63,701 bases of DNA from Clostridia bacterium (GTDB lineage: Bacteria; CBDUZB01; JAGLHV01). Shown piece after piece: positions 1,921 to 38,743 of the stretch (position 1 is its first letter; every line of letters starts with the position of its first letter). The DNA lies in the NCBI GenBank assembly GCA_030637025.1, contig DAOVVV010000011.1, forward strand, positions 1 through 63,701, written 5' to 3'. The notes under the pieces are model-generated. The model saw only the letters and a list, made by a program, of their open reading frames with translations, had not been told where the DNA came from and did no database searches. The position numbers and the translations under genes were made by a program.

Positions 1921-2374
1921 TTAAGGCTGTTCTTCAGCTGTTATAGTTACAGTTATAGTTTGTTGTGTTTTTAAAGTAGTACTGCTGGGTGATTCAAACC
2001 TGAACCATAAATATCTATCTTCACTGGGCGGCACATTATATCCTTTAGCCGCTTCCCCCTCGTCATCTTTGGCAAAATCTCCCGTAGAACATACCCGCTG
2101 AGTAGTTCCAATGGCATCGGAAAAACTTCCTCCGATATCAAAATGGCTGGTTTGTGCTGTGGCCGTCTGGAAATTACCGCACATACGGAATTCTTCCGCC
2201 CCGGGAGCAGTGTCAGTAACGCAGGTCCAGCCGGGATGGGAAGCAAGGTGAAGGCAATAGCGTTCGTTGACATCTCCGTCATTGGTAACGGTAATTGAGC
2301 TAATGGAAACATTTGTACTGTTTTTAAGCACTGTTCCGAAATCGCAAGCAGAAGAATCAATGGAGATACTTATG
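1921..2374 (-). repeat. Shared 3' cassette copy 1 (pilin-like domain, about 450 bp)
   Basis: Near-identical DNA and protein (YDFGTVLKNSTN...GAEEFRMCGNFQT...RYLWFRFESP...TITVTITAEEQP) at 5003, 11369, 13549, 14627 and 20056. Confidence 0.95.
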
Positions 2375-4545
2375 TTAGTTCCGGCTCCGCTCCGTGAGGC
2401 CTGGTCGGTATTGGCATAGGCACCCATATTAACCATGTCTCCGTTGTCTTCAGTTTCATTATCATAATATGTATACTCTACACTACCTGAATAAGGGGTT
2501 CCGGCATCAATACAGGGACTGGATTCAGCATCATTAATCCAACCTCCGCTTGTCCAGTGACCGGCAGTGGATTTTAAATGAAAATCACTGCCGGGAGTTA
2601 CGAATTTCGGGTCTTCTGATATTGAATTTGCATCTGGAGATAGATAACAGGCTTGCCAATCAACCAGGGTGGTGTAAGTTTCTGACGGGTTTACCCAAGA
2701 CCAGGTGTAAGCCAACCGGTTACCGGCGTCAACATAAAAAATATTATAATCGGAATCCGGTGCGTTATTATAAAAACCACCATCGCTCAAAAAAACTTGC
2801 TCTATTAGTGTTGAGCAATCATTAACACAGAAGATATTGTTCCGAACAGTAGCTCCTGAAAAGTCCGGCTGGAAGATGGCTGAGATAACATTATAAAATG
2901 TATTATTGTATGCCTGGGAATTTTGGCCTAATCGCCAGATTCCAGCGCTGTTGTGATTAAAATTCCCATTAGTGCTAACACGAATTAAATCGTGAAATAT
3001 GCAGTTACGAATAGTAGTAAAAGAAGCAGCTGCTCCAACCCCATGCGATAGTGTTCCGGTAAAGTTTATTCCTTGAATTGTAACATAAGAAATGCTGATC
3101 AGTAAAGCTCCGTAAGAGTTTTGGCTGTCATAATTAGCAAATAAAACCGTACTGGTATCGTTTTTCCATGTGGGCCTTTCTCCGGTCTTAGAACGGATAG
3201 TTAATGTGTCTGATGAAGTAGTAGTCAGACCGGAAAGAGCTACTCCTTCTACGTAATCAGCACTGTTTTGAATTTGAATATAAAATTTACCTTTACCAGT
3301 TAAATCATTGGATTCATTGGTGCAAAGGTCGGAAAATGCCTGTCCTATCGTTTGCCAGCAGTTATCCAGTACATCAGGATTCCCATCAGGGACACCACTA
3401 TTGTCAGGGGCAGTAGAATTGACATAATAAAAAGTGAAGGACTTAATTATTGCTGCACCTAATTGAACGGCATAAGTGCTAATATCATCACTTGCAGAGG
3501 AAATAGTAACGTCACCCGAAGAAGTGATTTCTATTCCCACGGTAGTATCTTCCACTGCGGAAGGGCTTACATCCAGGATTACATGGATGTAGTTTGTTGT
3601 TGCATATTCTGCAGTTACCGGTGTAGATGAAAAATCAAAACTGGCCTGATTACTGGCATTAAAACTTGTGCTTGTTGCCAGTTGACTTTCGGTTCCGTTG
3701 TAGATACCGTCTGTATCGGTAAATAATTTTATATTACTCAGGACAGCATCGGCATCACAGGTTCCGTATTCGGTAATGGTAATAGTGCTCAAATCACGCG
3801 CTTCGCTGGTGTTATCAGCGTAATATTTAAAGGTCCCGACAACCAGATTGGAGGTACCTTTGCATAACGAATTAACTCCGCTATGTTTAGCAATAGTTAC
3901 CTGTGTTTGCCCCGTAGTGGTATAATCAATTACCAATTTAGGTCTGTAATTATTGTATCCGGTATCTACCGTATAAAATCCGCAGTTATTAAAGGGTTGT
4001 CCGCTTTCAGCATCATTTTTAACCAGTAAACCGTCATTATTAGCCGGTGTATTCCACCAGTCCTGGATTGTGCTGGTAGCCGTATAACTTGCTTCTGCTC
4101 CGTTAGTATCCTGGTAGGTGTAATTACCAAGTTCAGTGGGATTAAAGGTACCCCCGGCAGTAGTCCAGGCGGTTGCATTATCTCTATTATTCCAGCAGGC
4201 GTATCCTGAAGTCCAGTTTTCGGTGAGTTGATAACATCTAAGGGTTAAACCACTACTTCCTACGGTATTTTCATACATATAGAAAGTAGCCGAATTTATT
4301 GAAGAACCAGGGGGAATAATGGAAAGAAGGTCAAATTGGGCAATGTATCTATACACAGTACTATTAGTGTGTCCTATTGCGTATGAAGTTTGTGAGCGAT
4401 TTATAGTAGTTGGGTCGTCACTATCTATTCCGTTATCTGCGGTTGGGTATATGGTCACAATATCTGTTTTGGCATATTCAATCCAGAAAGCAAGATGAAA
4501 AACAATAAAAAGTAATAATAAAACAATTTTTTTGTGTAATTTCAT
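1921..4545 (-). CDS. Secreted adhesin-like protein: DNRLRE/CBM96-like domain + Ig-like + parallel beta-helix + shared C-terminal pilin-like domain
   Basis: Signal peptide. QFDL..IPPGSSINSATF...RPKLVIDY (DNRLRE-like). YNNTF/RNNIF and DFHLKS...SPCIDAG...NMGAY (beta-helix end). The last ~150 aa are shared with four other proteins here. Confidence 0.75.
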   Translation of the reverse strand: MKLHKKIVLLLLFIVFHLAFWIEYAKTDIVTIYPTADNGIDSDDPTTINRSQTSYAIGHTNSTVYRYIAQFDLLSIIPPGSSINSATFYMYENTVGSSGLTLRCYQLTENWTSGYACWNNRDNATAWTTAGGTFNPTELGNYTYQDTNGAEASYTATSTIQDWWNTPANNDGLLVKNDAESGQPFNNCGFYTVDTGYNNYRPKLVIDYTTTGQTQVTIAKHSGVNSLCKGTSNLVVGTFKYYADNTSEARDLSTITITEYGTCDADAVLSNIKLFTDTDGIYNGTESQLATSTSFNASNQASFDFSSTPVTAEYATTNYIHVILDVSPSAVEDTTVGIEITSSGDVTISSASDDISTYAVQLGAAIIKSFTFYYVNSTAPDNSGVPDGNPDVLDNCWQTIGQAFSDLCTNESNDLTGKGKFYIQIQNSADYVEGVALSGLTTTSSDTLTIRSKTGERPTWKNDTSTVLFANYDSQNSYGALLISISYVTIQGINFTGTLSHGVGAAASFTTIRNCIFHDLIRVSTNGNFNHNSAGIWRLGQNSQAYNNTFYNVISAIFQPDFSGATVRNNIFCVNDCSTLIEQVFLSDGGFYNNAPDSDYNIFYVDAGNRLAYTWSWVNPSETYTTLVDWQACYLSPDANSISEDPKFVTPGSDFHLKSTAGHWTSGGWINDAESSPCIDAGTPYSGSVEYTYYDNETEDNGDMVNMGAYANTDQASRSGAGTNISISIDSSACDFGTVLKNSTNVSISSITVTNDGDVNERYCLHLASHPGWTCVTDTAPGAEEFRMCGNFQTATAQTSHFDIGGSFSDAIGTTQRVCSTGDFAKDDEGEAAKGYNVPPSEDRYLWFRFESPSSTTLKTQQTITVTITAEEQP

Positions 4546-4571
4546 TTTTTAAAATCCTCTTTTTAAACTAC

Positions 4572-5002: not shown

Positions 5003-5460
5003 TTAAGGCTGTTCTTCAGCCGTTATAGTTACAGTTATAGTTTGTTGTGTTTTTAAAGTAGTACTGCTCGGTGATTCAAACCTGAACCATAAATATCTAT
5101 CTTCACTGGGAGGCACATTATATCCTTTAGCCACTTCACCTTCGTCATCTTTAACAAAATCTCCTGTAGAACATACCCGCTGAGTAGTTCCGATGGCATC
5201 GGAAAAACTTCCGCCAATATCAAAATGGCTGGTTTGTGCAGTAGCCGTCTGGAAATTACCGCACATACGGAATTCTTCTGCCCCGGGTGCAGTATCAGTG
5301 ACACAGGTCCATCCGGCAGGGGCAGCAAGGTGAAGAGAATAGCGTTCGTTGACAATGCCATCGTTAGTAACGGTAATGGAGCTGACAGAAACATTAGTAC
5401 TGTTTTTCAGCACAGTTCCAAAATCGTAAGAAGAAGAATCAATGGAAATGCTGATACTAC
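5003..5460 (-). repeat. Shared 3' cassette copy 2
   Basis: Near-identical to 1921-2374. Confidence 0.95.
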
Positions 5461-5917
5461 TTATTTGTGCCCAGGCATTAGTCTTATTTGATATTCCCGA
5501 CCAGTTTAAAGCTCCATCGGCGGTTTTGATGTAGAAATAATAAGTAGTTCCGTCAATTAGACTACCGATGGTTTTATTTTCATTATTTCCGGGTGATGTA
5601 TTCGTTGACCATTGTAATTCGTAAGGCATATCATCCCATATATGAGCAGTTTCGGAAGAATATTTTATGTGATACTGGCCGTTAGTAATATTTCCTGTAT
5701 TTCCATCGTCTCCGGAAGCTGTCCAGGTTAAATCTATTGTACCTCCCGATGTCCCTGTAGAAGCCGACAAATCGGTAATGTCTGCCGGTGGTGTAGTATC
5801 CGGGGTACAGCTTACGGTAAGGGTATTGGGATTAAGGGCATAAATACAGGTAACTAACAGCAAATAACAAATGAGTGCAAAAAGAACAAAAATAATATTT
5901 TTTTTAAAGTTAGTCAT
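5003..5917 (-). CDS. Secreted FN3 + shared pilin-like domain protein (minor subunit)
   Basis: Likely start MTNFKK at 5917 with a GGAG RBS. Signal peptide ends IYA. One FN3 domain (DTTPPADITDL...LTWTASGDDG...TTYYFYIKT), then the shared cassette. Confidence 0.8.
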   Translation of the reverse strand: MTNFKKNIIFVLFALICYLLLVTCIYALNPNTLTVSCTPDTTPPADITDLSASTGTSGGTIDLTWTASGDDGNTGNITNGQYHIKYSSETAHIWDDMPYELQWSTNTSPGNNENKTIGSLIDGTTYYFYIKTADGALNWSGISNKTNAWAQISSISISIDSSSYDFGTVLKNSTNVSVSSITVTNDGIVNERYSLHLAAPAGWTCVTDTAPGAEEFRMCGNFQTATAQTSHFDIGGSFSDAIGTTQRVCSTGDFVKDDEGEVAKGYNVPPSEDRYLWFRFESPSSTTLKTQQTITVTITAEEQP

Positions 5918-5961
5918 TTTTTTTCTCCGGTTTTTAATTTTTTTCTTTTTATATTTCCTCT

Positions 5962-6888
5962 TCAATCCAAGATTACTATCTGATTACGATAGTAATATTC
6001 TACAGACTTCAGTCCAAAAGGACTCATAGTAACAGTGGGATCAAGATATGCTTCGTTTGTTTCAAAGAGATATATTAGAAATAGCGAAGATCCAGTATTA
6101 TCTTCCCATCCTGCGTACCATGTTGTAAAAGAATAAGAAAGAGTAGTACTTCTGGCTTTTCTTGATGCAGAGGTAAACGTGCTGATGCTGGATGTAATAG
6201 GCCAATAAAAACCACCGGTTGTGCTATAGTAAAAAATCGTGTTATCTATCGCAGTATCAATTAATGATTGTGAAGAAGTAGGGAGCTGTGACCATCCGGT
6301 ATAAGAGCCTTTTGTTATCGGAGTAATACATGTATCAAGTGCACTTGAATAATCACTTTCGGATGTTCCATACCCTACATTTTTATAATATAGATCTCCG
6401 TCGGCTAAGTAAATATATCCTGCAGGAAGACCTGCCTGTAACTTAACGGCTATATTTTGAGTTAAGGTAGCTGTTGTATTGGTCGGAGAGTTAAGTTCCA
6501 GATCAAAAGTCTGGGTAGTGCCTTTAGGTAACTCTGAATTTATTGTTTGAGTAGAAGCAATGGAAGTAAAGGAGACCAACTGACCTCCTTGAGCCTTTAA
6601 ACAGAATATTTCATTTCCTGCTGCATCCCCTTTAGTCCAATCCTGGGAGTTTTCACACCAGAGTTCCATTACCGAAGAATGGGAAGACCATCCACCAAAA
6701 TAACCACTGGAGGTGGAAGTGGAAAAATTAAGTCCAACCCTTCCGAAATCATAGGTAGTTGTTGTCACGGATACCTGCCATTCCCAGGCATAGCTTTTTT
6801 GAGTAAGTATTGTGTAAAAAAGCAATCCAATAAATAAAATCAATAAATAAAATCTTATAAATGAAATATTTTTTTTAAAGTTACTCAA
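5962..6888 (-). CDS. Secreted minor subunit B (divergent N-terminal pilin-like domain + variable C-terminal domain)
   Basis: TTG start and signal peptide. The first ~190 aa are nearly identical to 7880-8794. YDFG, W..GDAAGNEIF and SPTNTTATLTQNI motifs parallel the shared domain. Confidence 0.65.
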   Translation of the reverse strand: MSNFKKNISFIRFYLLILFIGLLFYTILTQKSYAWEWQVSVTTTTYDFGRVGLNFSTSTSSGYFGGWSSHSSVMELWCENSQDWTKGDAAGNEIFCLKAQGGQLVSFTSIASTQTINSELPKGTTQTFDLELNSPTNTTATLTQNIAVKLQAGLPAGYIYLADGDLYYKNVGYGTSESDYSSALDTCITPITKGSYTGWSQLPTSSQSLIDTAIDNTIFYYSTTGGFYWPITSSISTFTSASRKARSTTLSYSFTTWYAGWEDNTGSSLFLIYLFETNEAYLDPTVTMSPFGLKSVEYYYRNQIVILD

Positions 6889-7852
6889 TTTTTTTCTCCG
6901 ATGCGGATTTAATTTTTATTCGGCTGAAAGCATCATTTCCTTCATCAATAGAGTGAACGAAAATTAAACATTCTAACTTTTTATCAATAAACTCTTTTGT
7001 TTTTGGTAGATAAATTTTCAAGGTTATTGTTTGCGATTCTTTTCCCTTTATTTTTAATTCGGATAGAGTTTCTTCAAGACAAATACCCTGAGCAAAGCAT
7101 TTGGCCCATTTGTGATAGCGATCCTGATGCAGCCAATTAAATTCCCGGCTATGAGGAATAAATTCCCCCTGCGGAATTCTCCACGGACTAATGGTTCGTA
7201 CCCGGTAGAAATGCTCTTCTTTTGTGTTGTTATAAAGTTTGACCTGTGCCTGAACGGTAGTACCTAAAGGTAAGTTTTTAAATTCTATCACACTTGGAAT
7301 AAGAGTGAATGTATTTAATAATTTTTTATTTAGAGAATTTATTTTTATATCTGATTTGCTTTCGGTTTCTATTTGATAACGCGTTTCCATATTTAATCCG
7401 AACAATTCTCCTTTTTCTTGTTTAGTACTTACAATAATGCCTACTTCCCAATGCCGGTTGTAGTATTCTTCCTTTTTAGGAATTTTAAAGTAAAGAGGAA
7501 TTTCTTTTTTCTGCCGGGGTTTTAAGGTAATTGTATTTTTTTCAAACCAGACCCAGGAGGTATTTGGGATAGCTTTATATCCCTGAAATGTCCTTTGAGG
7601 TTTTTTAATGGAAAGCATAAATGTATGCGGTAAATCACTGTTGTTTTTAATACAAAAATTTATTTCTGACATCTGTTTTAAACTGATTTTTTTCCCTAAA
7701 GGAAGATTTTCTATGAGTTGAATATGGGGTTGGATACCTATCCCTGTTGCCCGGATAAATGAAACGTTGATGAAAAAAGTGCCCAATATAAAAACCCCCA
7801 ATGAGATGAATTTTTGGTAAAATCGGGATTTGGTTTTATTTTGTTTGGTCAT
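6881..7852 (-). CDS. Exported tandem-Ig chaperone-like protein 2 (PapD/DUF916-like)
   Basis: Signal/TM segment followed by two internally similar beta domains (IKNNSD...SWVWFEKNTITLKPRQKKEIPLYFKIPK). Paralog of 27309-28226. Confidence 0.55.
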   Translation of the reverse strand: MTKQNKTKSRFYQKFISLGVFILGTFFINVSFIRATGIGIQPHIQLIENLPLGKKISLKQMSEINFCIKNNSDLPHTFMLSIKKPQRTFQGYKAIPNTSWVWFEKNTITLKPRQKKEIPLYFKIPKKEEYYNRHWEVGIIVSTKQEKGELFGLNMETRYQIETESKSDIKINSLNKKLLNTFTLIPSVIEFKNLPLGTTVQAQVKLYNNTKEEHFYRVRTISPWRIPQGEFIPHSREFNWLHQDRYHKWAKCFAQGICLEETLSELKIKGKESQTITLKIYLPKTKEFIDKKLECLIFVHSIDEGNDAFSRIKIKSASEKKIE

Positions 7853-7879
7853 TATATCTCTCCTTGTTATCTGTTTACT

Positions 7880-8794
7880 TCAATCAAGAATTACTATCTG
7901 ATTACGGTAGTAAATTTCGATAGTTTCTTGTGCGTACCCAACCATCTCGCTGGTATTCTCTATTGCTCTTAATAACTGTGTTAGATAAATGGAAGAATCG
8001 CTATTATCTTCCCATCCTGCGTACCATATTGTATGCCACTGAGTTAGTCTAGTAGTAGTATTTACTTGTCTTGATGAGGATGAACTACTAAAAGAGGATG
8101 TAACAGGGAAATAAAAACCACCAAGGATACTGTAGGAATATTTAGTCTGAGGTCCAAATCCTGGGAAGGAAACTCTAACTGATGAAGAATAGGTATCCAT
8201 TTGGCTCCACCCTGTATATGTATTCTTCATTAACGGGGTAATACAGGTATCAAGTGCACTCGAATAATCACTTTCAGATGTTCCATATCCTACATTTTTG
8301 TAATACAGGTCTCCATCGGCTAAATAAATATATCCTGCAGGAAGCCCGGCTTGTAACTTAACGGCTATATTTTGAGTTAAGGTAGCTGTTGTATTGGTCG
8401 GAGAGTTAAGTTCCAGATCAAAAGTCTGGGTAGTGCCTTTGGGTAACCCTGAATTTATTGTCTGAGTAGAAGCAATAGAGGTAAAGGAAACCAACTCGCC
8501 GCCTTGAGCTTTTAAACAGAATATTTCGTTTCCTGCTGAATCTCCTTTTGTCCAATCCTGGGAGTTTTCAGACCACAGTTCCATAAGTGAAGAATGGGAA
8601 GACCATACACCAAAATAACCACTGGAGGTAGAAGTCGAAAAATTAAGCCCAACCCTTCCGAAATCATAGGTAGTTGTTGCCACGGATACCTGCCATTCCC
8701 AGGCATAGCTTTTTTTTGGGAAAAAGGAATAAAAAAGCAATCCAATAAATAAAATCAATAAATAAAATCTTATAAATGAAATAATTTTCTCCAT
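7880..8794 (-). CDS. Secreted minor subunit A (paralog of 5962-6888)
   Basis: Signal peptide ending SYA. Same architecture and the same C-terminal YYRNQIVILD as the paralog. Confidence 0.65.
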   Translation of the reverse strand: MEKIISFIRFYLLILFIGLLFYSFFPKKSYAWEWQVSVATTTYDFGRVGLNFSTSTSSGYFGVWSSHSSLMELWSENSQDWTKGDSAGNEIFCLKAQGGELVSFTSIASTQTINSGLPKGTTQTFDLELNSPTNTTATLTQNIAVKLQAGLPAGYIYLADGDLYYKNVGYGTSESDYSSALDTCITPLMKNTYTGWSQMDTYSSSVRVSFPGFGPQTKYSYSILGGFYFPVTSSFSSSSSSRQVNTTTRLTQWHTIWYAGWEDNSDSSIYLTQLLRAIENTSEMVGYAQETIEIYYRNQIVILD

Positions 8795-8814
8795 AATTTT
8801 AAGTTCCTTTTTTT

Positions 8815-11250: not shown

Positions 11251-11368
11251 CTTAATTCCTTTTATAAAAGAGCTTTGTTTAAAGTGGATTAACAATTATA
11301 TTAAATATCCAGGTTTTTTTCAAAGATATTTTCATATTTGTTTAATAGTAACATCTTTAGTTTTTTAT

Positions 11369-11790
11369 TTATGGCTACTCTTCAGCAGTTATAGTTACAG
11401 TTATTGTTTGTTGTGTAGTTAAGCTTGTACTTGTAGGTGATTCAAACCTGAACCATAAATATCTATCTTCACTGGGATGCACATTATATCCTTTAGCTTC
11501 TTTCCCTACGTCATCTTTAACAAAATCTCCGCTGGTGCATACTCCGGAGGTGGTTCCTATAGCATCGGAAAAACTTTCCCCAATATCAAAATGTCTGCTT
11601 TGTGCCGTATCTAGTGACACATGTTCAACCAGCAGGGACTGCCAGCTGTAAGGAATATCGTTCGTTAACATTTCCATTGTTAGTAACGGTTAAAGAGCTG
11701 ATAGCAGTAGTGGTACTTTATTTAATTACCGTTACAAAATTATAATTGGAAGAATTTACCGAAACACTTAATGCAATTCCGGTTTTTGTT
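11369..11790 (-). pseudogene. Decayed orphan copy of the shared pilin-like cassette (copy 3)
   Basis: Translates as ALSVSVNSSNYNFVTVIK*...ERYSLQLAVPAG*TCVT[deletion and frameshift]TAQSRHFDIG...TITAEE*P*. It has three in-frame stops and has lost the PGAEEFRMCGNFQ segment. Confidence 0.9.
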
Positions 11791-23775: not shown

Positions 23776-23811
23776 AAAAATTAAAAAACCTCCCAATATT
23801 TACAAATAATA

Positions 23812-26768: not shown

Positions 26769-27022
26769 CTTTAAATCCTCCTTTAGTTTATACATCTAAA
26801 TTATAGGTAAAAACCTATGTTTACATCTTTTTTTACTTTATTTTTTTCACCTCCTTTAGGATAGAATTTTGTGTTCATTTTTTTACCACTTCCTTTCTTT
26901 TTAATTTTTAAAATATTTCATTTAAATTTTTGTAATTGATTAATCAAACAATGCAAATAAATAACCGGATTACCCTTTTTTACTACAGATAACCCGGATT
27001 TTAAAGGCTTTTTTTATTGCCT

Positions 27023-27308: not shown

Positions 27309-28226
27309 TTATTTATTTATAGCAACATAAAGCCTGGAAAGAACTTTTAGATGAACTTTTTCCCCCAGTATTTTTGCTTGAATGATAAATACATATTTTT
27401 TACCTTTGTATTCTTTTTCCTTAGGAAAAGAAAGGTACATTTTTACTTCTCTTTCCTCTTTCGCCGGAACAAAAACTTTCGTTTTATTAAAAGTTAAAAA
27501 CCCCGGATTAGGCGTATCTTTGTAACCTTTTTTTAATTTTCCTCCTACATCTTCTACAGAAAGACTTTTTATTTCATAGGTAAAACCATATTTTTTATTG
27601 GGATTTATTATTTTAAGGGTTTGTTTAAGGTTATACACTTTACCCATTTTAATATTTTTTACTACAATATCATAAGGAAGAACGCTGAATTGGTAGTTCC
27701 CTTTTATTTTACCCGTTTCATCTTGAAAAGCCCCGCCTTTAGGAAGGGGGGAATGCTTGGAGGCAATAGTAAATAAGAGTTTACTTTTCAGGCCTATAGC
27801 AATGGAACCTGTACCGGCGATACTATGTGACCAAAAATAAACGATAAATTTTTTCCCTAAATATTTTTTGTTTTTAGGAATAGAAAGGAATAAATTTGTG
27901 ACCCCTGTTTGGTGAGCGGGTATAGTAAGTATTTCTTTTTCTATTTTTACCCATGAAATATCCGGAATAGCTTCAAAATCCCTTTCTAATTGATTCTTAC
28001 CCGGATAAACAGGTTCTACTTTGAGTGTTAAAGCAATATCACTGGTATTTTTTATTTTTAAAGGAAGATTAATTAAGTCTTTGGTATTATAAGTTTCCCC
28101 GATTTGCAAATTTTCTATGAGTATTTTTCCGAAAGAAGTGGATAAACCGGCAGTATAGGAAGGTTTTACAATTGAAAATTGCAGAGTAAAAATTAACAAA
28201 ACAAATAAAATGATTTTTTTTGGCAT
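27309..28226 (-). CDS. Exported tandem-Ig chaperone-like protein 1 (PapD/DUF916-like)
   Basis: Signal peptide followed by two internally repeated beta domains (LKIKNTSD...SWVKIEKEILTIPAHQT / LKIINPN...FLTFNKTKVFVPAKEE). Lies directly upstream of the major subunit. Confidence 0.55.
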   Translation of the reverse strand: MPKKIILFVLLIFTLQFSIVKPSYTAGLSTSFGKILIENLQIGETYNTKDLINLPLKIKNTSDIALTLKVEPVYPGKNQLERDFEAIPDISWVKIEKEILTIPAHQTGVTNLFLSIPKNKKYLGKKFIVYFWSHSIAGTGSIAIGLKSKLLFTIASKHSPLPKGGAFQDETGKIKGNYQFSVLPYDIVVKNIKMGKVYNLKQTLKIINPNKKYGFTYEIKSLSVEDVGGKLKKGYKDTPNPGFLTFNKTKVFVPAKEEREVKMYLSFPKEKEYKGKKYVFIIQAKILGEKVHLKVLSRLYVAINK

Positions 28227-30408: not shown

Positions 30409-31905
30409 TTATTGTACTTTCAAAGATATTAAGGTTATATCATCGTTTTGTTCGGCACCGGCAGTAAAATTTTCTATTTCTTTTTTAAGTTTATTAATAA
30501 TATTCTGAGCAGTATTATCTTTATAGTTTAAAACTGCCTTTTCCAGCCGGGATTCTCCAAATTCTTCTTTTTTTCTATTCATTGCTTCTGTTATGCCGTC
30601 AGTATAAAAAATTATTAAGTCATTTTCACTTAGAGAAATGGTTTCTTGTTTTATATTTTGATTAAATAATGTTTCGGTAGCTATTCCTAAAGCTATGCCG
30701 CTGGATTTAGTCCAGGATGCTTTGTTTTGTTGAATAAGTAATAATGGATTATGACCGGCACTTGCATATTGAAATGTTTTGTTTTTTGTGTCCAGAATGG
30801 CAAAAAGCATGGTTACAAAAAGTCCTTTTTTTATATCGCGGCAGACTAAAATATTAGTTTTGGCTAAAACTTCTGCCGGTGGACTTGTTTTTGTTATTTG
30901 AGAACGGAATATACTGCGGGTAAGAGCCATTCCTAAAGAACCGGGAATTCCTTTTCCGGAAACATCAGCAATTACAAGACCAAGTTTTTCCGGGGTTATC
31001 CAGAAGAAATCATAGTAATCACCACCAATTTCTTTAGCTGCTTTGTAAAAAGCGCCAATATCAAAAGATGCATTTTCAGGGCATTTTTTAGGAAGTAAAG
31101 ATTGTTGGATTTGTTGTGCAATTTGTAATTCCTTTTTTAAACGTGCCCCTTCAATAAGTTTTTCTTGTGCATTTTTTAATTTTTGGGTCATTTCGTTAAA
31201 AGTTTCAGCTAGTTGACCGATTTCATCTTTAGTCGGGATTATGATTTTGTAGTCTAAATTACCGGTACCGATTATTCGTACTCCTTTAGTGAGTATCCCT
31301 ATCGGTTTGGTAATAAAAGAAACCAGTATCCAGGAAATAATTAATCCTAAAACAAGGACAAAAACAGTAATAGCAAAAATAATGTTTTTTACTTTCTTTA
31401 TTGTTGCAGCAATTTCTTTCCCCGAAAATCCTAAACGGATAGTTCCTAGTTTATTGTTGTTGCTTAAAATAGGGACAGCGATGTCATAATAATCATCCAT
31501 GGAAGAATCTGTGTTATGCTGAATAAGGGTTCCTTTCTTTACTTCTACTGCCTTTTGCCAAAAAGGATCCTTAAAGGTTGTCCCTTTGATTACACGGTGA
31601 TCAGAATGAGAAATAACCTTGCCGGTCTTATCCAGAATCATAGCATACAATATGGATTTATCTTCTGCGATTTTATCCATATAAATACCTAAAAGTAATT
31701 CATCCCCACTTAGTAAAGCTTCTGCGCTTGTTGCTGCTAAATTAGAACCTAACGCTTCACCTTTTTTTTGCATTTCTTTAATTAGTGGTTTTTTTATTTC
31801 ATTGGAAATGATTAATCCAACACTTATCATAGTTAGGGCGATTAGTCCGCTGATGATCAAACTGAATTTTTTTTTCAAACTTGTTTTTCTTTTTCGTTCT
31901 TTCAT
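30409..31905 (-). CDS. Membrane sensor HAMP + PP2C (SpoIIE/RsbU) phosphatase
   Basis: Two TM helices. HAMP (DEIGQLAETFNEM). IGGDYYD, IADVSGKG, SAGH, YTDGITEA and DDITL motifs. Confidence 0.9.
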   Translation of the reverse strand: MKERKRKTSLKKKFSLIISGLIALTMISVGLIISNEIKKPLIKEMQKKGEALGSNLAATSAEALLSGDELLLGIYMDKIAEDKSILYAMILDKTGKVISHSDHRVIKGTTFKDPFWQKAVEVKKGTLIQHNTDSSMDDYYDIAVPILSNNNKLGTIRLGFSGKEIAATIKKVKNIIFAITVFVLVLGLIISWILVSFITKPIGILTKGVRIIGTGNLDYKIIIPTKDEIGQLAETFNEMTQKLKNAQEKLIEGARLKKELQIAQQIQQSLLPKKCPENASFDIGAFYKAAKEIGGDYYDFFWITPEKLGLVIADVSGKGIPGSLGMALTRSIFRSQITKTSPPAEVLAKTNILVCRDIKKGLFVTMLFAILDTKNKTFQYASAGHNPLLLIQQNKASWTKSSGIALGIATETLFNQNIKQETISLSENDLIIFYTDGITEAMNRKKEEFGESRLEKAVLNYKDNTAQNIINKLKKEIENFTAGAEQNDDITLISLKVQ

Positions 31906-31919: not shown

Positions 31920-33911
31920 CTAGTTTTTAGTTTCGATAATAATTTCTACTCTGCGGTTCTTAGCGCGTCCTAAAACTGTTTTGTTGGAAGCTGTAGGTTT
32001 CGTTTGGCCGAAACCTTTTACAGAAAAAGCTTCTGCGGATAAAGTATTATCCTTTATTAAAGCTTGAAAAACAGTGTGTGCACGAGCTTGAGAAAGTTTT
32101 AAATTAGAAGAATAGAGACACTTGCTTCCTATGGGAACATTGTCGGTGTGTCCGTTTATTTTAATTTTAAGATTGGGGTATTTTTCCGAAGGATATCTTT
32201 TTAAGAAATTAACCACTGTAGCAATTGTTTCGTCTCCGCCTTTTTTTATTTGAGCACTTCCGGAGTCAAAGAGTAAGGTTTCCTGTAGAGTAAGACGGGT
32301 AACAACTTCTTTCTTTTTTGCGGTAGTAATTTTTTCTACCAGGATTGCGGGAGTAGATTTAACTTTGGCTATCATTACGGTCTTTGTTGTTGCCGTTTGG
32401 CCAAGCCAGTCGGTTAAAGTTGCCCGGATAGGGTTTTTTCCTTCTTCCAGATTGATTAGAGCGGTAAATGTTTGGTTGGTAGAGTCTAAGGTAGCTAATA
32501 TATTACCCGGTTGAACAAGTATGTTGTCAATTTTGTTTTTGTTGTATGTTCCTGAAATCTTTTGTAGTCCTATGTTTCGGGTGGCAGTAGTAGAGTCAAT
32601 GGTGATTTTAGGAGGAATAGTATCTATTTTAATGGTAGCTAAGGATGAATTATAATCTTCTTGTTCATTTTCAACGGTTAGGCGAAGATTATAAGTATCA
32701 CTTAAACAAGGTAAATTTTCCATTGTCCAAATAATTTGGTAATGGTTTTTTGTTTTAGCAGGAATAACGGTTATTTCTGTATTAGTCCATATGTCAGGGA
32801 AAGATGCTGTACTGTATTCTATTACCGGTTTGCCCATTTTTTGATAACTGGAAATAAAACAATCTATTTTTAACGGGGTAGAAATTTTTAGTTTGGTAAG
32901 AGAACTTAGTTTTGTATTAATTTCTACTTGAGGAATTTGTTTGTTATATCGGCGGATTCCTTTATCATCTGTGCCAAACCAGACATAATTTCCGTCTACC
33001 AGGATTGTGCTTAATGATATGCCTTCTTTAGAGGAAAATGTTTTCCATTTTTTCGTATCCATATTAAAGAGACTTATTCCATCAAATGTTCCCACCCATA
33101 GATTTTTTCCATCACGGGCAATTGCCTGAACAAAGTTATCACATAACCCGTTAGAAGTTGTATAGGTTTTCCATGTTTGAGAAGATTTGTTATAGCTGCG
33201 TACCCCCCCCCCATTAGTTCCACACCAGATAAAGCCCCTTTCTGCGGTTAAAACGATATTGCTGTAAAGAGTAGTTTGAGGATATTGTATGTTCCATTCT
33301 CCTGTATGGAGATTAAGGGTGTTGATTACCGCGCCGACAGTTCCTATAATCAGGTAAGCTCCATCCCGGATCAAAGTCTTAATTCTATTATCAAAAAGGC
33401 CGTCTTTGGTTGTGTAAACAGCACCCATAGTCTTAGTTGTTTTATTAAAAGAAGTTAAACCTATTTCGGTGCCTATCCAGATAGTATTTCCAATGTTTAG
33501 AAGCGTATTTACCTGGTTATGGGGTAAACCGTTTTTCATGGTGTAAGTGGTCCAGGATTTTTTATTTTTATTAAATAGGGTTAATCCTTTTTTTGTGCCG
33601 AACCAGACCTTGTCGTTCAGGACAAGAATACTGTTGATGTAATTAGAAGCGAGGCCGTCGTTAATGGTATAATTAGTCCAGGTGTTTTTTTTTGTGTTGA
33701 AAAGGCTTACTCCCTTTTGAGTTCCAATCCAGAAAGCATGTTTATCTTTAGCGATACAGTTAATGGTTTCTCCTATTAATCCACAATTTGTCTTGTTGTA
33801 AAAAGTCCAGTCCGGGTTTTTATCGCTTTCCGCTATGCTTTTTGCAGGATAAAGGAAAAAATAGTTACAACAGCAGATGAATAATATAACTAATATACTT
33901 TTTTTGGACAT
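31920..33911 (-). CDS. Beta-propeller (Reg_prop-like repeats) + Ig-like + OmpA-like peptidoglycan-binding protein
   Basis: Signal peptide and repeated WIGT..G...W..YT..DGL..N blades. C-terminal LFDSG...GHTD...NLKLSQARA...G.G...P...NRRVEI. Confidence 0.85.
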   Translation of the reverse strand: MSKKSILVILFICCCNYFFLYPAKSIAESDKNPDWTFYNKTNCGLIGETINCIAKDKHAFWIGTQKGVSLFNTKKNTWTNYTINDGLASNYINSILVLNDKVWFGTKKGLTLFNKNKKSWTTYTMKNGLPHNQVNTLLNIGNTIWIGTEIGLTSFNKTTKTMGAVYTTKDGLFDNRIKTLIRDGAYLIIGTVGAVINTLNLHTGEWNIQYPQTTLYSNIVLTAERGFIWCGTNGGGVRSYNKSSQTWKTYTTSNGLCDNFVQAIARDGKNLWVGTFDGISLFNMDTKKWKTFSSKEGISLSTILVDGNYVWFGTDDKGIRRYNKQIPQVEINTKLSSLTKLKISTPLKIDCFISSYQKMGKPVIEYSTASFPDIWTNTEITVIPAKTKNHYQIIWTMENLPCLSDTYNLRLTVENEQEDYNSSLATIKIDTIPPKITIDSTTATRNIGLQKISGTYNKNKIDNILVQPGNILATLDSTNQTFTALINLEEGKNPIRATLTDWLGQTATTKTVMIAKVKSTPAILVEKITTAKKKEVVTRLTLQETLLFDSGSAQIKKGGDETIATVVNFLKRYPSEKYPNLKIKINGHTDNVPIGSKCLYSSNLKLSQARAHTVFQALIKDNTLSAEAFSVKGFGQTKPTASNKTVLGRAKNRRVEIIIETKN

Positions 33912-33948: not shown

Positions 33949-35961
33949 TTATCTTAATTCTTTCAGTCTCTTTATTTTTGTTTTGGCTCTCTTTAAGTAT
34001 TTCGTTGTTTTTTTGTGTCCGGGTTGAATAATTAAAGCTTTTTCCCATATTTTTGCTGCTTCTTTTAATTTATTTTCCCGGTAATAAATGATTCCCTGAG
34101 CCAGATATGCTTCTAAACAAATATTTTTAATTTTTTGATGTTGGGGAGTAATTTGTAAGGCTTTTTTCCAGAAAATAATGGCTTTTAAATATTTACCTGC
34201 ATTATATTCTTTAATTCCTTGCTGATGAAGTTTATCGCTTTTTTCAATGAATTCTTTCCTTGTTTTTTGGATGGCTCTTTTAGCCCGGACATAAGTAGGA
34301 GTAAGTTTAAGCAGTTGAGTCCATTGATTAATTGCTTCTTTGAAATTTCCGTTTTTATAAAAAAGCATTCCCTCTTGAAAGAGTTTATTACCTAATTCTG
34401 TAAATAAACGGGAAGTTTCTTTTTGATAGGGGTCTAAATTTAATACCTGTTTCCATTTTCTTACTGCAGAAAAGTAATCTTTATTATGATAGAAATTCAA
34501 ACCTTCTTTTATGTATTTTCTGATAATTTCTTTTTTAAGAGATATTTTTTGTTTTTTTATGTTGACCAAAGCTTGTTGTATTTTTTCATCTATTTGTGGA
34601 TAATAGGGATAAACCTTTGCTATTTTTTCCCATTCTTTAATGGCTTGAATATATTTTTTTTCTTGAGACAGATTTATTCCCTGCCGGAAGTAGTTATCTA
34701 ATTTTTGTTCCATTGAATGAATAAATGTTTGGGCCTGTTTTTCCGAGGGGTCTAAAACTAAAATACGTTGCCATTTTTTTTCAGCTTCTTTCCATAAAGA
34801 GTTTTTATAGTAAGAAGAAGCTTTTTTATAAAGAGTTTTTATTTCTATCTTTATTCGACCGTTGATGCTGTCTATGTGCTGATTTGCTACTTTAGAGCGG
34901 GGGTCAATCCTGAAAATTTTTTTAAAAATATCGCGTGCTTCGGCAAGTTTCTCTCTCTGATATAAATCTATTCCTTCTCTCAAGTATGCAGTAATAACGA
35001 CCTGTTCTTCTTCTGTTAGCGAGGATTTAAAAATAATTTCTTTCCCGAATTTCAAGGTTAAGGATATTTGGTGTGTTCCGTATGTTTTTTCAATTCCGGA
35101 AAGGGGATAAGCAAAAGCATAGTCTATTTGAAATAAAGGATAATTCCAACTTAGTCCACAGGTTAAGTCTCTATATAAATGGTCTCCTATCCCAAATCCG
35201 CCTCTTATGCCTAATATTTTTTGAAAAAGCCATTTTTCTCCCCCGGTATAAAATTTTAGATTATCGTCTTTATAATATGTATCCAAACCCACATTAAAAG
35301 TATCCTTTTTATAGGCACAGCCTAGTTTAATACCCATAAGTGTTTTATCTTCCAGTTTAAGACCCATATCCGGTTGATTAACATCAATTAAAATAAGGCC
35401 GAAAGAAATGGTTTCAGTTAGTTTATATAAGCTGCTAATATCTATACTGTAGTTATTAACCACTGACCCATTGCTGAAAAGAGGATCTATATGAGTCTCG
35501 GAATTTTCCCCGAATCTTTTTACCAACCATTTCAAATTTATTCCTCCGGCAAAGCGATTTTTATATAATCTTTTACCGTAAGAGAGAATAATAATGTCTT
35601 CCTGGTATAAGTCAGCCAGAATAAAATTTAACCAGCCTATACCAATTGTTCCCCATGATGATTCTTCCTGAATGTTTTTTAAAGGGTGGGCATAAAAACA
35701 AAGACTATTAATTAAATTACTATTGTCTTTCAATCCCCAGTAAATTTTTCCACAACTGGTAGTAAGTTCTTTTCTGCTTAGTTGAGATAGTCCCGCAGGA
35801 TTGTAATAAATACTGTAAACATCATCACAAACAGCAACAAAATTTTTTGCTCTGCCAATACATCGTGCTCCTACGCCAACTTCTTCGAAGTGAGCATAAA
35901 GATATGAATTACACAACAAACAAATAATAACAGCAATTAAAGACCTCTTATTAGCTTTCAT
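33949..35961 (-). CDS. PorV/PorP-like outer-membrane beta-barrel with C-terminal TPR array (copy 1)
   Basis: GVGAR..G...VAV.DD.YSIYYNPAGL, a barrel ending IDYAFAYPL...THQISLTLKFG, then TPRs. Confidence 0.75.
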   Translation of the reverse strand: MKANKRSLIAVIICLLCNSYLYAHFEEVGVGARCIGRAKNFVAVCDDVYSIYYNPAGLSQLSRKELTTSCGKIYWGLKDNSNLINSLCFYAHPLKNIQEESSWGTIGIGWLNFILADLYQEDIIILSYGKRLYKNRFAGGINLKWLVKRFGENSETHIDPLFSNGSVVNNYSIDISSLYKLTETISFGLILIDVNQPDMGLKLEDKTLMGIKLGCAYKKDTFNVGLDTYYKDDNLKFYTGGEKWLFQKILGIRGGFGIGDHLYRDLTCGLSWNYPLFQIDYAFAYPLSGIEKTYGTHQISLTLKFGKEIIFKSSLTEEEQVVITAYLREGIDLYQREKLAEARDIFKKIFRIDPRSKVANQHIDSINGRIKIEIKTLYKKASSYYKNSLWKEAEKKWQRILVLDPSEKQAQTFIHSMEQKLDNYFRQGINLSQEKKYIQAIKEWEKIAKVYPYYPQIDEKIQQALVNIKKQKISLKKEIIRKYIKEGLNFYHNKDYFSAVRKWKQVLNLDPYQKETSRLFTELGNKLFQEGMLFYKNGNFKEAINQWTQLLKLTPTYVRAKRAIQKTRKEFIEKSDKLHQQGIKEYNAGKYLKAIIFWKKALQITPQHQKIKNICLEAYLAQGIIYYRENKLKEAAKIWEKALIIQPGHKKTTKYLKRAKTKIKRLKELR

Positions 35962-36042: not shown

Positions 36043-36059
36043 GCTGTTACCCCTGTGTA

Positions 36060-36360
36060 GTTAAACTGATTTTTTTCCTTAAGACTTACTTTTCTTTTTT
36101 GTTCTTTCCTTTTTTTCCTTACAACTAATTTTTAGTTCCGATGATAATTTCTACTCTGCGGTTCTTAGCGCGTCCTGGAACTTGTTTTCTTGGAAGCTGT
36201 AGTTTTTATTTTGCCGAAACTTTTTACGGAAAAAGCTTCTGCAGATAAATTATTATCTTTTATTAAAGCTTGAAAAACAGTGTGTGCACGAGCTTGAGAA
36301 AGTTTTAAATTAGAAGAATAGAGACACTTGCTTCCTATGGGAACATTGTCGGTGTGTCTG
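36060..36360 (-). pseudogene. Duplication scar: 3' remnant of the OmpA gene and decayed start of the SpoIIE gene
   Basis: Aligns with 31860-32155 (HTDNVPIGSKCLYSSNLKLSQARA...). It is frameshifted near the end, and the following ATGAAAGAA has become AGGAAAGAA. Confidence 0.9.
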
Positions 36361-36361
36361 C

Positions 36362-38380
36362 TTATTCTAATTCTTTCAGTGTCTTTATTTTTGTTTCTGC
36401 TCTCTTTAAGTATTTCGCTGCTTTTTTGTGTCCGGGTTGAATAATTAAAGCTTTTTTCCATATTTTTTCTGCTTCTTTTAATTTATTTTCCCGGTAATAA
36501 ATGATTCCCTGAGCTAGATATGCTTCTAAACAAATATTTTTAATTTTTTGGTGTTGGGGAGTAAGTCGTAAAGCTTTTTCCCATAAAGTAATGGCTTCTA
36601 AATATTTACCTGCATTATATTTTTTAACTCCTTGTTGATGAAGTTTAGTGCTTTTTTCAATGAATTCTTTATTAGTTTTATTAATTGCGATTTGGGCTTT
36701 GGCATAAGTAGGAATGATTTCAAGCAGTCGAGTCCATTGGTTAATTGCTTCTTTGAATTTTTCGTTTTGATAAGAAAGCGTACCCTCTTGAAAAAGTTTA
36801 TTACCTAATTCTTCAAATAAACGGAAAACTTCTTTTTGTTCGGGGTCTAAATTTAATACCTGGTTCCATTTTCTTGCTGCAGAAAAGTAATTTTTTTTGC
36901 GGTAAAAATTTAAACCTTCTTTTATGTATTTTTGAATAATTTCTTTTTTAAGGGATAATTTTTGTTGTTTTATCTTGACTAATGCTTGGTGGATGTTTTC
37001 ATTTATTTGTGGATAATCGGGGTAAACCTTTACTATTTTTTCCCATTCTTTAATGGCTTGAGCATATTTTTCTTTTTGATATAGGTTTATTCCTTGCTGG
37101 AAGTAGTTATCTATTTTTTGTTTAATTGATTGGATAAATGCTTGGGCCTGTTTTTCATTCCGGTTTAAAATTAAAATATGCTGCCATTGCTTTTCGGCTT
37201 CTTTCCACAAAGAGTTTTTATAGTAAGAAGAAGCTTTTTTATAAATATTTTTTATTTCTATCTTTATTCGACCGTTGATGCTGCTTATGTACTGATGTGC
37301 TAATTCAGATCGGGGGACAAGCCTAAAAATTTTTTTAAAAATAATACGTGCTTCGGCAAGCCTTTTTTTCTGGTATAAATCTATTCCTTCTCTTAAGTAT
37401 GCAGTAACAACGGCCTGTTCTTTTTCAGTTAGAGGGTATTTATAAATAATTTCTTTTCCGAATTTTAAGGTTAAAGATATTTGGTGTGTTCCATACATCT
37501 CTTCAATTCCATAAAGAGGATAAGCAAAAGCATAGTCTATTTGAAATAAAGGATAATTCCAACTTATTCCACAGGTTAAATTTCTATATAAATGGTCTCC
37601 TGCCCCGATTCCACCTCTTATGCCTAATATTTTTTGAAAAATCCATTTTTCTCCCCCGGCATAAAATTTTAGACTATCATCCTTATAATGGGTATCTAAA
37701 CCTACATTAAAGACATCTTTTTTATAAGCAATACCCAGTTTGATACCCATAGGTGTACGTTCTTCTTCTTTTTCAAGTTCCATGTTAGGTTGATTGACAT
37801 CAGTTAAGATAAGGCCAAAAGAAAGAGTTTGAGTTGGTTTGTATAGGCCGCTAAGATCTATGCTGTAGTTACTAACCACTGACCCATTGCTGAAAAGAGG
37901 ATCTAGTTGGGTATAAGCATTTTCCCCATATTTTTTTGCCAGCCATTTTAAGTTTATTCCCCCGGCAAGGCGATTTTTATATAATCTTCTACCATAAGAG
38001 AGTATAATAGTGTCTTCCTGGTATAAGTCAGCCAGACTAAAATTTAACCATCCTATACCAATAGTTCCCCACGATAATCCTTCGGTCTTACCTTTTAAAG
38101 GCTGAGCATAAAAACAAAGGCTATTGACTAAATTGCTGTTATCGTCTAGTCCCCAGTGAATTTTTCCACAACTGGTACTAAGTTCTTTTTTGCTTAGTTG
38201 CGATAATCCGGCAGGATTGTAATAAATACTGTAAACATCATCACAAACAGCAACAAAATTTTTTGCTCTGCCAATGCAGCGTGCCCCTACACCTATTTTT
38301 TCGAAGTGAGCATAAAGATATGAATTACACAATAAACAAAGAATAGGGATTAAAAAATATTTAATTTTTGTTATTGTCAT
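36362..38380 (-). CDS. PorV/PorP-like outer-membrane beta-barrel with C-terminal TPR array (copy 2)
   Basis: Highly similar over its full length to 33949-35961. Likely start MTITK at 38380. Confidence 0.75.
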   Translation of the reverse strand: MTITKIKYFLIPILCLLCNSYLYAHFEKIGVGARCIGRAKNFVAVCDDVYSIYYNPAGLSQLSKKELSTSCGKIHWGLDDNSNLVNSLCFYAQPLKGKTEGLSWGTIGIGWLNFSLADLYQEDTIILSYGRRLYKNRLAGGINLKWLAKKYGENAYTQLDPLFSNGSVVSNYSIDLSGLYKPTQTLSFGLILTDVNQPNMELEKEEERTPMGIKLGIAYKKDVFNVGLDTHYKDDSLKFYAGGEKWIFQKILGIRGGIGAGDHLYRNLTCGISWNYPLFQIDYAFAYPLYGIEEMYGTHQISLTLKFGKEIIYKYPLTEKEQAVVTAYLREGIDLYQKKRLAEARIIFKKIFRLVPRSELAHQYISSINGRIKIEIKNIYKKASSYYKNSLWKEAEKQWQHILILNRNEKQAQAFIQSIKQKIDNYFQQGINLYQKEKYAQAIKEWEKIVKVYPDYPQINENIHQALVKIKQQKLSLKKEIIQKYIKEGLNFYRKKNYFSAARKWNQVLNLDPEQKEVFRLFEELGNKLFQEGTLSYQNEKFKEAINQWTRLLEIIPTYAKAQIAINKTNKEFIEKSTKLHQQGVKKYNAGKYLEAITLWEKALRLTPQHQKIKNICLEAYLAQGIIYYRENKLKEAEKIWKKALIIQPGHKKAAKYLKRAETKIKTLKELE

Positions 38381-38455
38381 TTTTTTCCTTTTTTGATTTA
38401 TCATTATAATGTTTGAATTTCAGTCAAAAGTTTAATGTTCTTCTTTGACCTATAT

Positions 38456-38743
38456 TTACTTTCTATTTTTAAAAAAATCCTTATTATTTAAGGAATTTTT
38501 AATTTCTTGCAGGGAACGGCGTCTTTCAAAAGGTGGCCTGATTTTATAAATTATTTTTAAGCTCGACTGTTTATTGTATAATCGGTAACCGGCCGGGGTT
38601 TTTGCTTCTATTTTAAGCAACCCGATGTCTGTATAATATCTAATAGTTGAAACCGGTACACCCGCTACTTTGGCCAGTTCTCCTATAGTTAAAAATCCCA
38701 ATTTTAAACGTTCTTCTTTGTTAGGCAAGTTTTTTTCCTCCAT
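38456..38743 (-). CDS. Small MerR-family HTH regulator
   Basis: LTIGELAKVAGVPVSTIRYYTDIGLL...T.AGYRLY...SLQEIK, with no effector domain. Confidence 0.85.
   Translation of the reverse strand: MEEKNLPNKEERLKLGFLTIGELAKVAGVPVSTIRYYTDIGLLKIEAKTPAGYRLYNKQSSLKIIYKIRPPFERRRSLQEIKNSLNNKDFFKNRK

Follow-up and report, generated by a model that had tools for sequence, protein, structure and literature searches.

The window analysed here is a stretch of 63,701 nucleotides (contig DAOVVV010000011.1 of the assembly GCA_030637025.1), in which every long open reading frame (ORF) between 1.9 and 38.8 kb lies on the minus strand. The genes of this locus, labelled A to T, probably encode a chaperone-assisted donor-strand fibre with cassette-bearing tips and a base protein that ends in a C-terminal domain (CTD) of the type IX secretion system (T9SS), in an uncultured sediment bacterium with an outer membrane. 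All of the support for this proposal is computational, and a probability of about 0.6 is assigned to it. The system looks like an outer-membrane-bearing counterpart of a newly described Gram-positive pilus. An earlier sequence-only reading of the locus had listed five classes of part, and all five were found on the minus strand where it had placed them. The similarities are far beyond chance. None of the three checks that this reading had named as able to refute it did so.

The major pilin candidate, M (26196-26795; all features of the locus are on the minus strand), is a protein of 190 amino acids (aa) with a probable ATG start codon at 26768. Its signal peptide is of the ordinary AxA type and ends in VYA. 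This is followed by an amphipathic 14-aa N-terminal peptide, ALSEDIYCTVLIQD (26652-26693), which makes up mature residues 1-14 and is the candidate donor strand, and then by an incomplete immunoglobulin (Ig)-like domain of 151 aa. The mature protein is approximately 165 aa in length. M therefore has the composition that had been read from the sequence for a small stand-alone subunit, an N-terminal peptide plus a domain of ~150 aa. No match to M, to the cassette described below or to a profile of M was found in Pfam, NCBIfam or the PDB sequences, for M even at E 10.

As the sequence-only reading had led one to expect, five large proteins end in a copy of the same domain, referred to as the acceptor cassette; its length is exactly 150 aa in each case. 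These are A (1921-4545, 874 aa, cassette 1924-2373), a putative tip protein with a beta-helix of the DNRLRE/disaggregatase type; B (5003-5965, 320 aa, cassette 5006-5455), which consists of FN3 and the cassette; I (13549-14592, 347 aa, cassette 13552-14001), a small candidate tip or cargo protein; J (14627-20029, 1800 aa, cassette 14630-15079), with a polytopic membrane N-terminus, TPR and two Kelch propellers; and K (20056-23796, 1246 aa, cassette 20059-20508), a candidate tip or cargo protein with CARDB, FN3 and a beta-helix-like part in common with A. At the protein level the cassettes are 83-92% identical to that of B (tblastn, E 5e-70 to 7e-86) and 41-43% identical to M. Each starts with I/L-S/N-I-S-I and ends two to three residues past the last strand, and none of the five proteins has the N-peptide before it. 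DNA identity among the five copies is 77-90%, whereas the 450 nt upstream are only 41-47% identical (the random level), with the exception of the A-K pair at 73%; outside that pair the payloads are unrelated to one another. This indicates that the cassette is kept homogeneous within the genome while the payloads vary. A sixth cassette lies at the end of contig C7 of the same genome, and two divergent copies occur in a second, smaller locus on contig C58.

The candidate for the base or anchor of the fibre is L (24000-25745, 581 aa). This protein contains a signal peptide, a donor strand (25605-25646), an FN3 stalk and a CTD at approximately 24015-24266, and has no pilin domain. Its mature N-terminus, AALSEDIYCTV, is identical to that of M, although eight of the 11 codons differ synonymously; the signal peptides of the two proteins are unrelated. 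That the peptide is identical despite these codon differences speaks for selection on it rather than for (recent) gene conversion. The C-terminal domain of L is above the cut-offs of both CHU_C in Pfam (32.1 bits, cut-off 27) and the T9SS type-B family TIGR04131 (35.1 bits, cut-off 35), so the expected protein with the N-terminal peptide, without the domain and with a type-B-like CTD is present in the locus. For the donor strand, a position-specific scoring matrix (PSSM) of 14 columns with the ANPA prefix was too noisy and was replaced by a nine-column core. Over all window proteins, high scores were obtained only for M (27.3) and L (20.5).

The mature M monomer was modelled with AlphaFold2 from an alignment of 38 rows as a confident beta-sandwich (predicted local distance difference test, pLDDT, 89.3; predicted template modelling score, pTM, 0.83). 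In the model the fold is a PapD-like/Ig sandwich, from which no family membership can be claimed. A Foldseek search gave nothing at E<=1e-3. The top match was the TasA fibre (8aur, E 2.3e-3, query TM-score, TMq, 0.47), followed by further weak matches that are mostly donor-strand pilins: CS20, CfaB, FocH, SafA, FimG, PapE, Csu and the Sulfolobus thread. The comparison with known fibres that the sequence-only reading had proposed thus leads, weakly throughout, to fibre subunits, and neither these matches nor the sequence databases place the domain in a characterised non-fimbrial family. No WxL-domain structure was returned for M by VIA and Foldseek; a likeness of fold is still possible, the ElrD model being perhaps absent from the PDB copy searched.

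When three copies of mature M were modelled together, a head-to-tail arrangement was predicted, with a median interface score (ipSAE) of 0.71 compared to 0.00 for each of three controls. Runs agreed on at least 98% of contacts and the pLDDT of the partners was at least 88. In the calibration, which was made with two copies and other alignments and holds only roughly for the trimer, 20 of 30 proteins with structures solved as pairs came up to the mark used for ipSAE, against one of 23 solved as single chains. The interface sets residues 1-14 of one copy against residues 15-31 and 138-162 of the next. The donor strand lies in parallel with the first strand (pairings 8-24, 10-26 and 12-29), and donor residues 8, 10 and 12 point at 140, 142 and 144. 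As modelled, this geometry is that of donor-strand exchange in chaperone-usher and WxL pili, and it implies a head-to-tail fibre. A closed fold that excludes the N-peptide is not what the model gives, as the peptide is seated on the neighbouring subunit. The possibility that donor Cys8 and Cys141 form a disulfide lock was rejected. Residue 8 in the model lies against 140 and 142, not 141, and in the homologues P0002 and P0005 the donor Cys is kept with Arg in place of Cys141.

The chaperone candidate is N (27309-28226), a tandem PapD-like protein with a signal peptide and no C-terminal transmembrane (TM) helix, predicted to be periplasmic. The second tandem PapD-like protein, D (6881-7852), is its paralogue. 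Two tandem-Ig, chaperone-like proteins had been noted in the locus, and N and D are indeed mutually homologous with two Ig-like domains each. The AlphaFold2 model of N (pLDDT 80.6) has two PapD-like domains and ends in a strand. Its Foldseek matches are tandem ASH/HYDIN-type domains at ~1e-13 and Caf1M, FimC and PapD at ~1e-8, and its best structural matches include WxLIP and chaperone-usher chaperones. In Pfam, both proteins match WxLIP_PGBD (DUF916, PF06030) below the threshold (N E 0.04, D E 0.001), and D also matches Cep192_D4 (E 2e-6). One member of the N family, P0210, is above the WxLIP_PGBD cut-off (31.8 against 27.3 bits), and PF06030 was matched in two of the 100 N homologues listed. 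In the protein atlas, N lies close to clusters with WxLIP_PGBD (0.87) and PapD_N (0.86), which are leads only. A profile of N against the PDB sequences gave chance-level rows only, WxLIP 9i1y not being found by sequence; no PapD_N or fimbrial family was seen among the Pfam matches of the window proteins, and no DUF3324 match was seen for N or D. The C-termini of both are of hydrophilic beta-strand sequence with no hydrophobic tail.

The division into shaft, tip and base subunits extends to the family as a whole. A word-indexed search with M returned 34 relatives, nearly all of ~180 aa and without a family name. An exhaustive profile search gave 2541 cluster representatives at E<=1e-3, of which 1247 remained at E<=1e-10. 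Among 182 re-scored proteins, 124 are small (<=230 aa) and 58 are longer (up to 3983 aa). The match begins in the signal peptide or N-strand in 116/124 small members, and the domain lies within 10 aa of the C-terminus in 54/58 large members, in agreement with the mapping that had been inferred from the window. The median profile start in the long members is position 34, the end of the donor-strand columns, and in 18 of the 58 the profile start is position 30 or earlier. Across the family, V10 is the one N-strand residue that never varies, and F142 is almost invariant. Payloads were scanned in the 50 large members of up to 1300 aa and are extracellular: mannanase-type GBD (6), FN3 (5), CBM11 (3), CBM30 (2), CBM4_9 (2), GH113 (2), subtilase (2) and CARDB (2), together with LTD, FG-GAP and ice-binding-like domains.

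The neighbourhood of the pilin gene was surveyed in one genome per GTDB species, which returned 29 loci from metagenome-assembled genomes labelled Ignavibacteria, Eisenbacteria, Zixibacteria, Omnitrophota, Planctomycetia, PVC and 'bacterium'. A stand-alone pilin gene is present in 25/29, one of these loci ending 6 nt past the gene. In all 24 evaluable loci an N/D homologue adjoins it (23 downstream, one upstream), and in one further locus the tandem-Ig gene is present while the pilin gene is lost at the edge of the locus. The gene that follows the tandem-Ig gene (gene 3) encodes a T9SS-CTD protein in 19 of the 25 loci with a tandem-Ig gene, and three of the other six end at a contig edge. All ten gene-3 proteins tested are above the cut-off of 23 for the T9SS type-A family TIGR04183 (27.8-57.8 bits). 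Outside the close relatives of the window, these proteins are mostly 150-340 aa long and consist of a signal peptide, a linker and an alternating strand (e.g. SSISVTVVVV, SSVAVTVTVV or STLAVTVTVT) that resembles the ATI-VTVTIQ of the pilins. Relative to 1026 other ORFs of the same loci, the nine-column PSSM places 16 of 20 at the 95th percentile or higher and seven of 20 at the 99th or higher; several of the top-scoring background ORFs are operon neighbours. The sequence evidence for a donor strand in gene 3 is therefore moderate, the motif being low in complexity. Cassette-bearing large proteins are often encoded just upstream of the pilin gene, and PorV-like barrels occur in 7/29 loci (L001-3, L007, L009, L015 and L017). 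The co-occurrence of the domain with chaperone and CTD genes, on which the sequence-only reading depended, is thus seen across genomes, with barrels in a smaller share. The same picture was obtained with phmmer and the proteins of the window itself. Prevalence of the pilin is patchy: it is present in 4/4 genomes of the own GTDB phylum, and in 6/101 and 5/101 sampled genomes of a second and third phylum (centre genomes included).

The export and anchoring of the fibre were followed in the own genome, which is 97.8% complete. The sequence-only reading had seen no usher, SipW or lipoprotein-pilin signal. In the genome, the outer-membrane usher PF00577 and the SipW-type signal peptidase TIGR02228 each gave 0 matches, with positive controls in E. 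coli and B. subtilis respectively, and M has no lipobox. The PorV/PorP-like barrels and the propeller-OmpA protein that the reading had listed are present as well. Q (31920-33911) combines a Reg_prop beta-propeller with an OmpA-type peptidoglycan-binding domain. R (33949-35961) has a PorV-family outer-membrane barrel (residues 25-305) and a TPR domain of ~360 aa, and its paralogue S (36362-38404) has the same arrangement; their PorV-family matches are below the threshold of 90 bits (48 bits in one scan, 60.6 and 31.6 bits in another). The own genome holds 33 CHU_C-type CTD and 32 PorV-family matches that are often adjacent (e.g. on C13, C40, C14, C29 and C58), which suggests a general pairing of a CTD protein with its own barrel. 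In five other host genomes, SprA was above the cut-off in four and GldM_1st in none. A reduced T9SS-like export route may operate in the own genome.

Several points weigh against the fibre proposal. No outer-membrane pore for the fibre was identified, the absence of a usher included. In the own genome no match to GldL, GldM or C25/PorU was obtained, a weak negative as the controls were uninformative, and SprA was matched only distantly, in four collinear pieces of a 1734-aa protein (37-61 bits, cut-off 200). M and the cassette proteins are without any CTD. J has a polytopic membrane N-terminus which cannot suit a secreted tip as it stands, and which base-first export leaves unexplained. The complex score of the trimer is the model's own confidence; solved donor-strand complexes exist in this fold class, and likeness to them may explain part of it. 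The best PSSM score of each cassette protein is its own last strand (12.0), and the donor-like motif of gene 3 is a low-complexity VTVTV strand. The profiles for CTD, chaperone and pilin behind the synteny counts were partly built from the same loci. As a separate observation, the SprA-like protein is encoded on contig C73 at 5258-10459 (locus L030 spans 6857-10201), beside genes that look like LptF/LptG permeases by their N-termini alone.

On the proposed mechanism, N in the periplasm would cap the grooves of the subunits until exchange, as PapD/FimC and ElrE do. An acceptor-only payload protein would cap the distal end of the fibre and M would polymerise as the shaft. L, as the donor-only subunit, would end growth and hold the fibre at the outer membrane by means of its CTD, together with the barrel-TPR proteins R and S and the peptidoglycan-binding Q. 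Given the lack of a usher, assembly probably takes place in the periplasm, where the fibre would be built from tip to base. The least certain step is export, and here the proposal is speculative: an SprA-like translocon with PorV-like barrels might recognise the single CTD on L. The thin chain would then follow its base out and stay attached via the CTD-barrel-OmpA module.

The closest competitor to this fibre is a static display platform, in which the cassette acts in a dockerin-like manner in short 1:1 or 1:1:1 complexes (L-M-cargo or L-cargo) and no long M polymers are formed. An excess of acceptor-only cassettes over the pilin gene of 5:1 in the window would suit such a platform, as would the payloads of the family, which are mostly enzymes and carbohydrate-binding modules, and the donor strand of L could bind a cassette directly. 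A model of the same kind was put forward earlier for WxL clusters, as discussed in a recent preprint (10.64898/2026.10.17.759780). However, M has both donor and acceptor and is the most conserved and commonest type of member, many loci encode the pilin, tandem-Ig and base proteins with no large cassette protein in view, and the homotrimer is predicted head-to-tail with high confidence. The platform is therefore considered rather unlikely.

The donor-strand fibre finds its nearest parallel in the WxL/Elr pilus of Enterococcus faecalis and other Bacillota (for WxLIP, see PMC10599100). According to the preprint of October 2026, the enterococcal elr/WxL cluster builds a pilus in which ElrD polymerises by donor-strand exchange with a 14-15-residue N-terminal strand, and ElrE, a DUF916/DUF3324 membrane protein, is the chaperone (10.64898/2026.10.17.759780). 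The WxL domain forms the module nearest the C-terminus of ElrA and thousands of adhesins, and the small ElrB carries a donor strand and an LPxTG anchor and lacks an acceptor (10.64898/2026.10.17.759780). A C-terminal TM helix is reported there on 96.7% of WxL chaperones, and the authors describe the system as confined to Bacillota (10.64898/2026.10.17.759780). Both systems comprise a small donor-plus-acceptor pilin, large adhesins with a C-terminal domain and variable payloads, a donor-only base protein with a cell-anchoring signal, and a gene for a two-Ig-domain chaperone(-like) protein next to the pilin. The passing WxLIP_PGBD match in the N family, with the sub-threshold matches of N and D, is a further likeness. 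They differ in the donor consensus; in the chaperone candidate N, which is soluble, predicted periplasmic and without C-terminal TM helix or DUF3324 match; in the anchor, which is a T9SS-type CTD with PorV-like barrels (in L and in the ten gene-3 proteins tested) and not LPxTG with sortase; and in the hosts, which are candidate phyla with an outer membrane instead of Bacillota. The WxL family PF13731 itself did not match M or the cassette at E<=10 and was not found genome-wide at E<=1, with a positive control in Lactococcus lactis. The nearest named ESM Atlas cluster to the pilin has WxL in 12% of its members (score 0.79), which is a lead only.

Similarities are also seen with the chaperone-usher pili (type 1/P, CFA/I and archaic Csu). 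In these an N-terminal extension lies antiparallel to the last strand, as is predicted here; the tip adhesins consist of a payload and a C-terminal pilin domain without a donor strand; and a periplasmic two-domain PapD-like protein is present. Unlike in these pili, no usher was found in the own genome, and the candidate base is a dedicated donor-only protein that ends in a T9SS CTD. Pfam returned no PapD_N or fimbrial match, and the membership of N in the PapD family is not claimed from its PapD-like fold. The terminators of chaperone-usher pili, such as PapH, are full pilins. The present system is taken to work like the WxL/Elr and chaperone-usher pili and is assigned to neither.

TasA/TapA fibres, archaeal bundling pili (AbpA), Sulfolobus threads and cannulae share with M a donor-strand-complemented Ig or jelly-roll domain and N-terminal donor strands, and the best fold matches of M, all weak, are 8aur, 9ikk, 7ueg, 7pnb and 9h8b. 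M could accordingly be read as the subunit of a chaperone-free matrix fibre resembling TasA or the archaeal threads, with N an accessory protein or adhesin and the CTD protein an unrelated neighbour. That the TasA fibre heads the Foldseek list of M agrees with this, as does the lack of a usher in the genome. The known fibres of this type, however, need no PapD-like chaperone and have neither C-terminal-cassette tips nor a CTD base. TasA depends on SipW, of which no counterpart was found here, and M does not match Peptidase_M73/TasA in Pfam. The strict adjacency of the tandem PapD-like gene to the pilin gene, the WxLIP and chaperone-usher chaperones among the best structural matches of N and the recurrence of a third gene with a donor-like strand in 19 loci also argue against a chaperone-free fibre, which is judged improbable.

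The type V pili of Bacteroidia (FimA/Mfa1) are usher-less strand-exchange fibres of the Bacteroidota group in which an anchor subunit terminates growth. Type V pilins are lipoprotein precursors that are cleaved by gingipains and have C-terminal donor strands. M and its homologues, by contrast, have an AxA-type signal peptide with no lipobox cysteine and an N-terminal donor strand that starts at mature residue 1-3. With regard to the T9SS, L resembles type-B cargo with cognate PorP/SprF-like barrels, since it ends in a type-B/CHU_C CTD and PorV-family barrels are encoded in the locus. SprB and SprF of Flavobacterium are an example of such a cargo with its barrel. Unlike type-B cargo, the CTD protein would here carry a non-covalent fibre whose other subunits have no CTD, and unlike T9SS hosts, the own genome is without GldL, GldM and PorU matches (with the uninformative controls mentioned) and has only a distant SprA. 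That the 150-aa domain is instead a new secretion or sorting signal read by PorV-like barrels or the tandem-Ig protein, with M a free regulatory or plug copy and no fibre, is highly improbable: the domain is nearly always last in the large members, the cassettes have evolved in concert as T9SS CTDs often do and the genome is rich in CTD/PorV-like pairs, but known sorting tags do not resemble a 150-aa open-groove Ig fold whose matching N-strand is carried by two other proteins, and both the identical N-peptide on L and the head-to-tail model would be left unexplained.

Within the donor-strand fibre proposal, a more specific version is offered tentatively and is doubtful in its full extent. The system would be a diderm relative of the WxL/Elr pilus, ancient and reaching beyond the Bacillota, in which the whole non-covalent chain is pre-assembled in the periplasm and then exported and anchored by the CTD of the base subunit through an SprA-like pore and PorV-like barrels. 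If so, it would provide a usher-independent route for a donor-strand pilus by T9SS 'piggy-back' export, and through the interchangeable 150-aa cassette the cell could present enzymes or adhesins at the tip of the fibre. As a natural tag for protein display, the modular cassette may also find use. Searches of the literature on donor-strand pili with type IX secretion, diderm WxL and TasA-like fibres turned up no account of a system of this kind (supplements of the October 2026 preprint not covered).

Donor-strand exchange pili are known with an outer-membrane usher in the Proteobacteria. Anchoring by sortase in the Bacillota was added by the October 2026 preprint (10.64898/2026.10.17.759780). 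If the proposed fibre exists, this locus and its relatives, 2541 cluster representatives in uncultured phyla, would represent a third solution, with the same polymerisation chemistry, no usher and a base held by type IX secretion parts. The restriction of WxL-type chaperone-pilin systems to the Bacillota would become testable. A large family without annotation would gain a proposed function, as would a C-terminal domain that is common in giant surface proteins of candidate phyla, and the question of how the fibre crosses the outer membrane would be raised.

A second, divergent module of pilin-like and chaperone-like genes may be formed by E, D and C. C (5962-6888) and its paralogue E (7880-8794) flank D. 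Each has a domain of the M type immediately behind its signal peptide (hhalign probability 93%, E 2.6e-7; pilin-domain homology at residues 37-153 in C), no N-terminal donor strand, and a C-terminal part of 155 aa with the shared conserved end YYRNQIVILD. The C-terminal half of C matched no Pfam family. C and E may perhaps be a type of subunit that donates from its C-terminus, given the strand-like end. In Omnitrophota- and PVC-labelled loci (L027 and L029), D-type proteins are paired with pilin-like genes of ~160 aa.

Three membrane proteins of the locus may act in modification. O (28230-30362) is a Wzy_C (O-antigen-ligase-type) membrane protein with TPR, and it is conserved beside N in loci L001-L003. 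F (8815-11295) is a polytopic membrane protein with TPR and possibly a glycosyltransferase. The membrane parts of F and J matched no Pfam family; they may resemble GT-C or TMTC-like proteins. The polytopic membrane domain of J has a DDD motif close to the N-terminus. O, F and the N-terminus of J might modify the fibre or a lipid anchor, by glycosylation or by attachment of lipopolysaccharide (LPS), a role which we assume from Wzy_C-type ligases and O-oligosaccharyltransferases.

The remaining genes of the locus include H (11804-13510), a tail-fibre-like protein with the intramolecular chaperone domain Peptidase_S74 and without a cassette. Directly downstream of it lies G (11372-11774), a frameshifted acceptor-cassette remnant with internal stops, the two frames of which have 63% and 67% identity. 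P (30409-31905) is a sensor phosphatase of Cache-HAMP-SpoIIE (PP2C) architecture and a probable regulator, and T (38456-38755), at the head of the locus, is a MerR-family regulator. A 98-aa ORF at 36165-36461 (minus strand), between S and R, is a near-exact repeat of the final ~65 residues of the OmpA domain of Q. From its sequence, it looks like the remnant of a duplicated R-Q pair of which S is the surviving copy of R.

The smaller locus on contig C58 (14046-23167, minus strand) encodes a PorV-like barrel, a 372-aa cassette protein, a 529-aa CTD protein, a second PorV-like barrel, a 295-aa tandem-Ig protein and a 315-aa FN3-cassette protein, and is without a stand-alone pilin gene. Within the window, a Tad/Flp-type pilus locus (40444-47952, plus strand) is the divergent neighbour of the donor-strand locus and encodes RcpC/CpaB, a CbiA-T2SSE (CpaE-CpaF-like) fusion and T2SSF. 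Its 75-aa Flp-like prepilin is read as such from the sequence pattern and has no Pfam match.

The own GTDB phylum consists of only four species genomes of a single genus. Close relatives carry the NCBI labels 'bacterium' or 'Clostridia bacterium', the latter of which is probably a mislabel. There was no RNA among the 20 sequencing runs listed, which is neutral with regard to the fibre. Sequence matches in sequencing runs came from sediment or cold-seep metagenomes only, four runs of one study holding at least 94% of the words.

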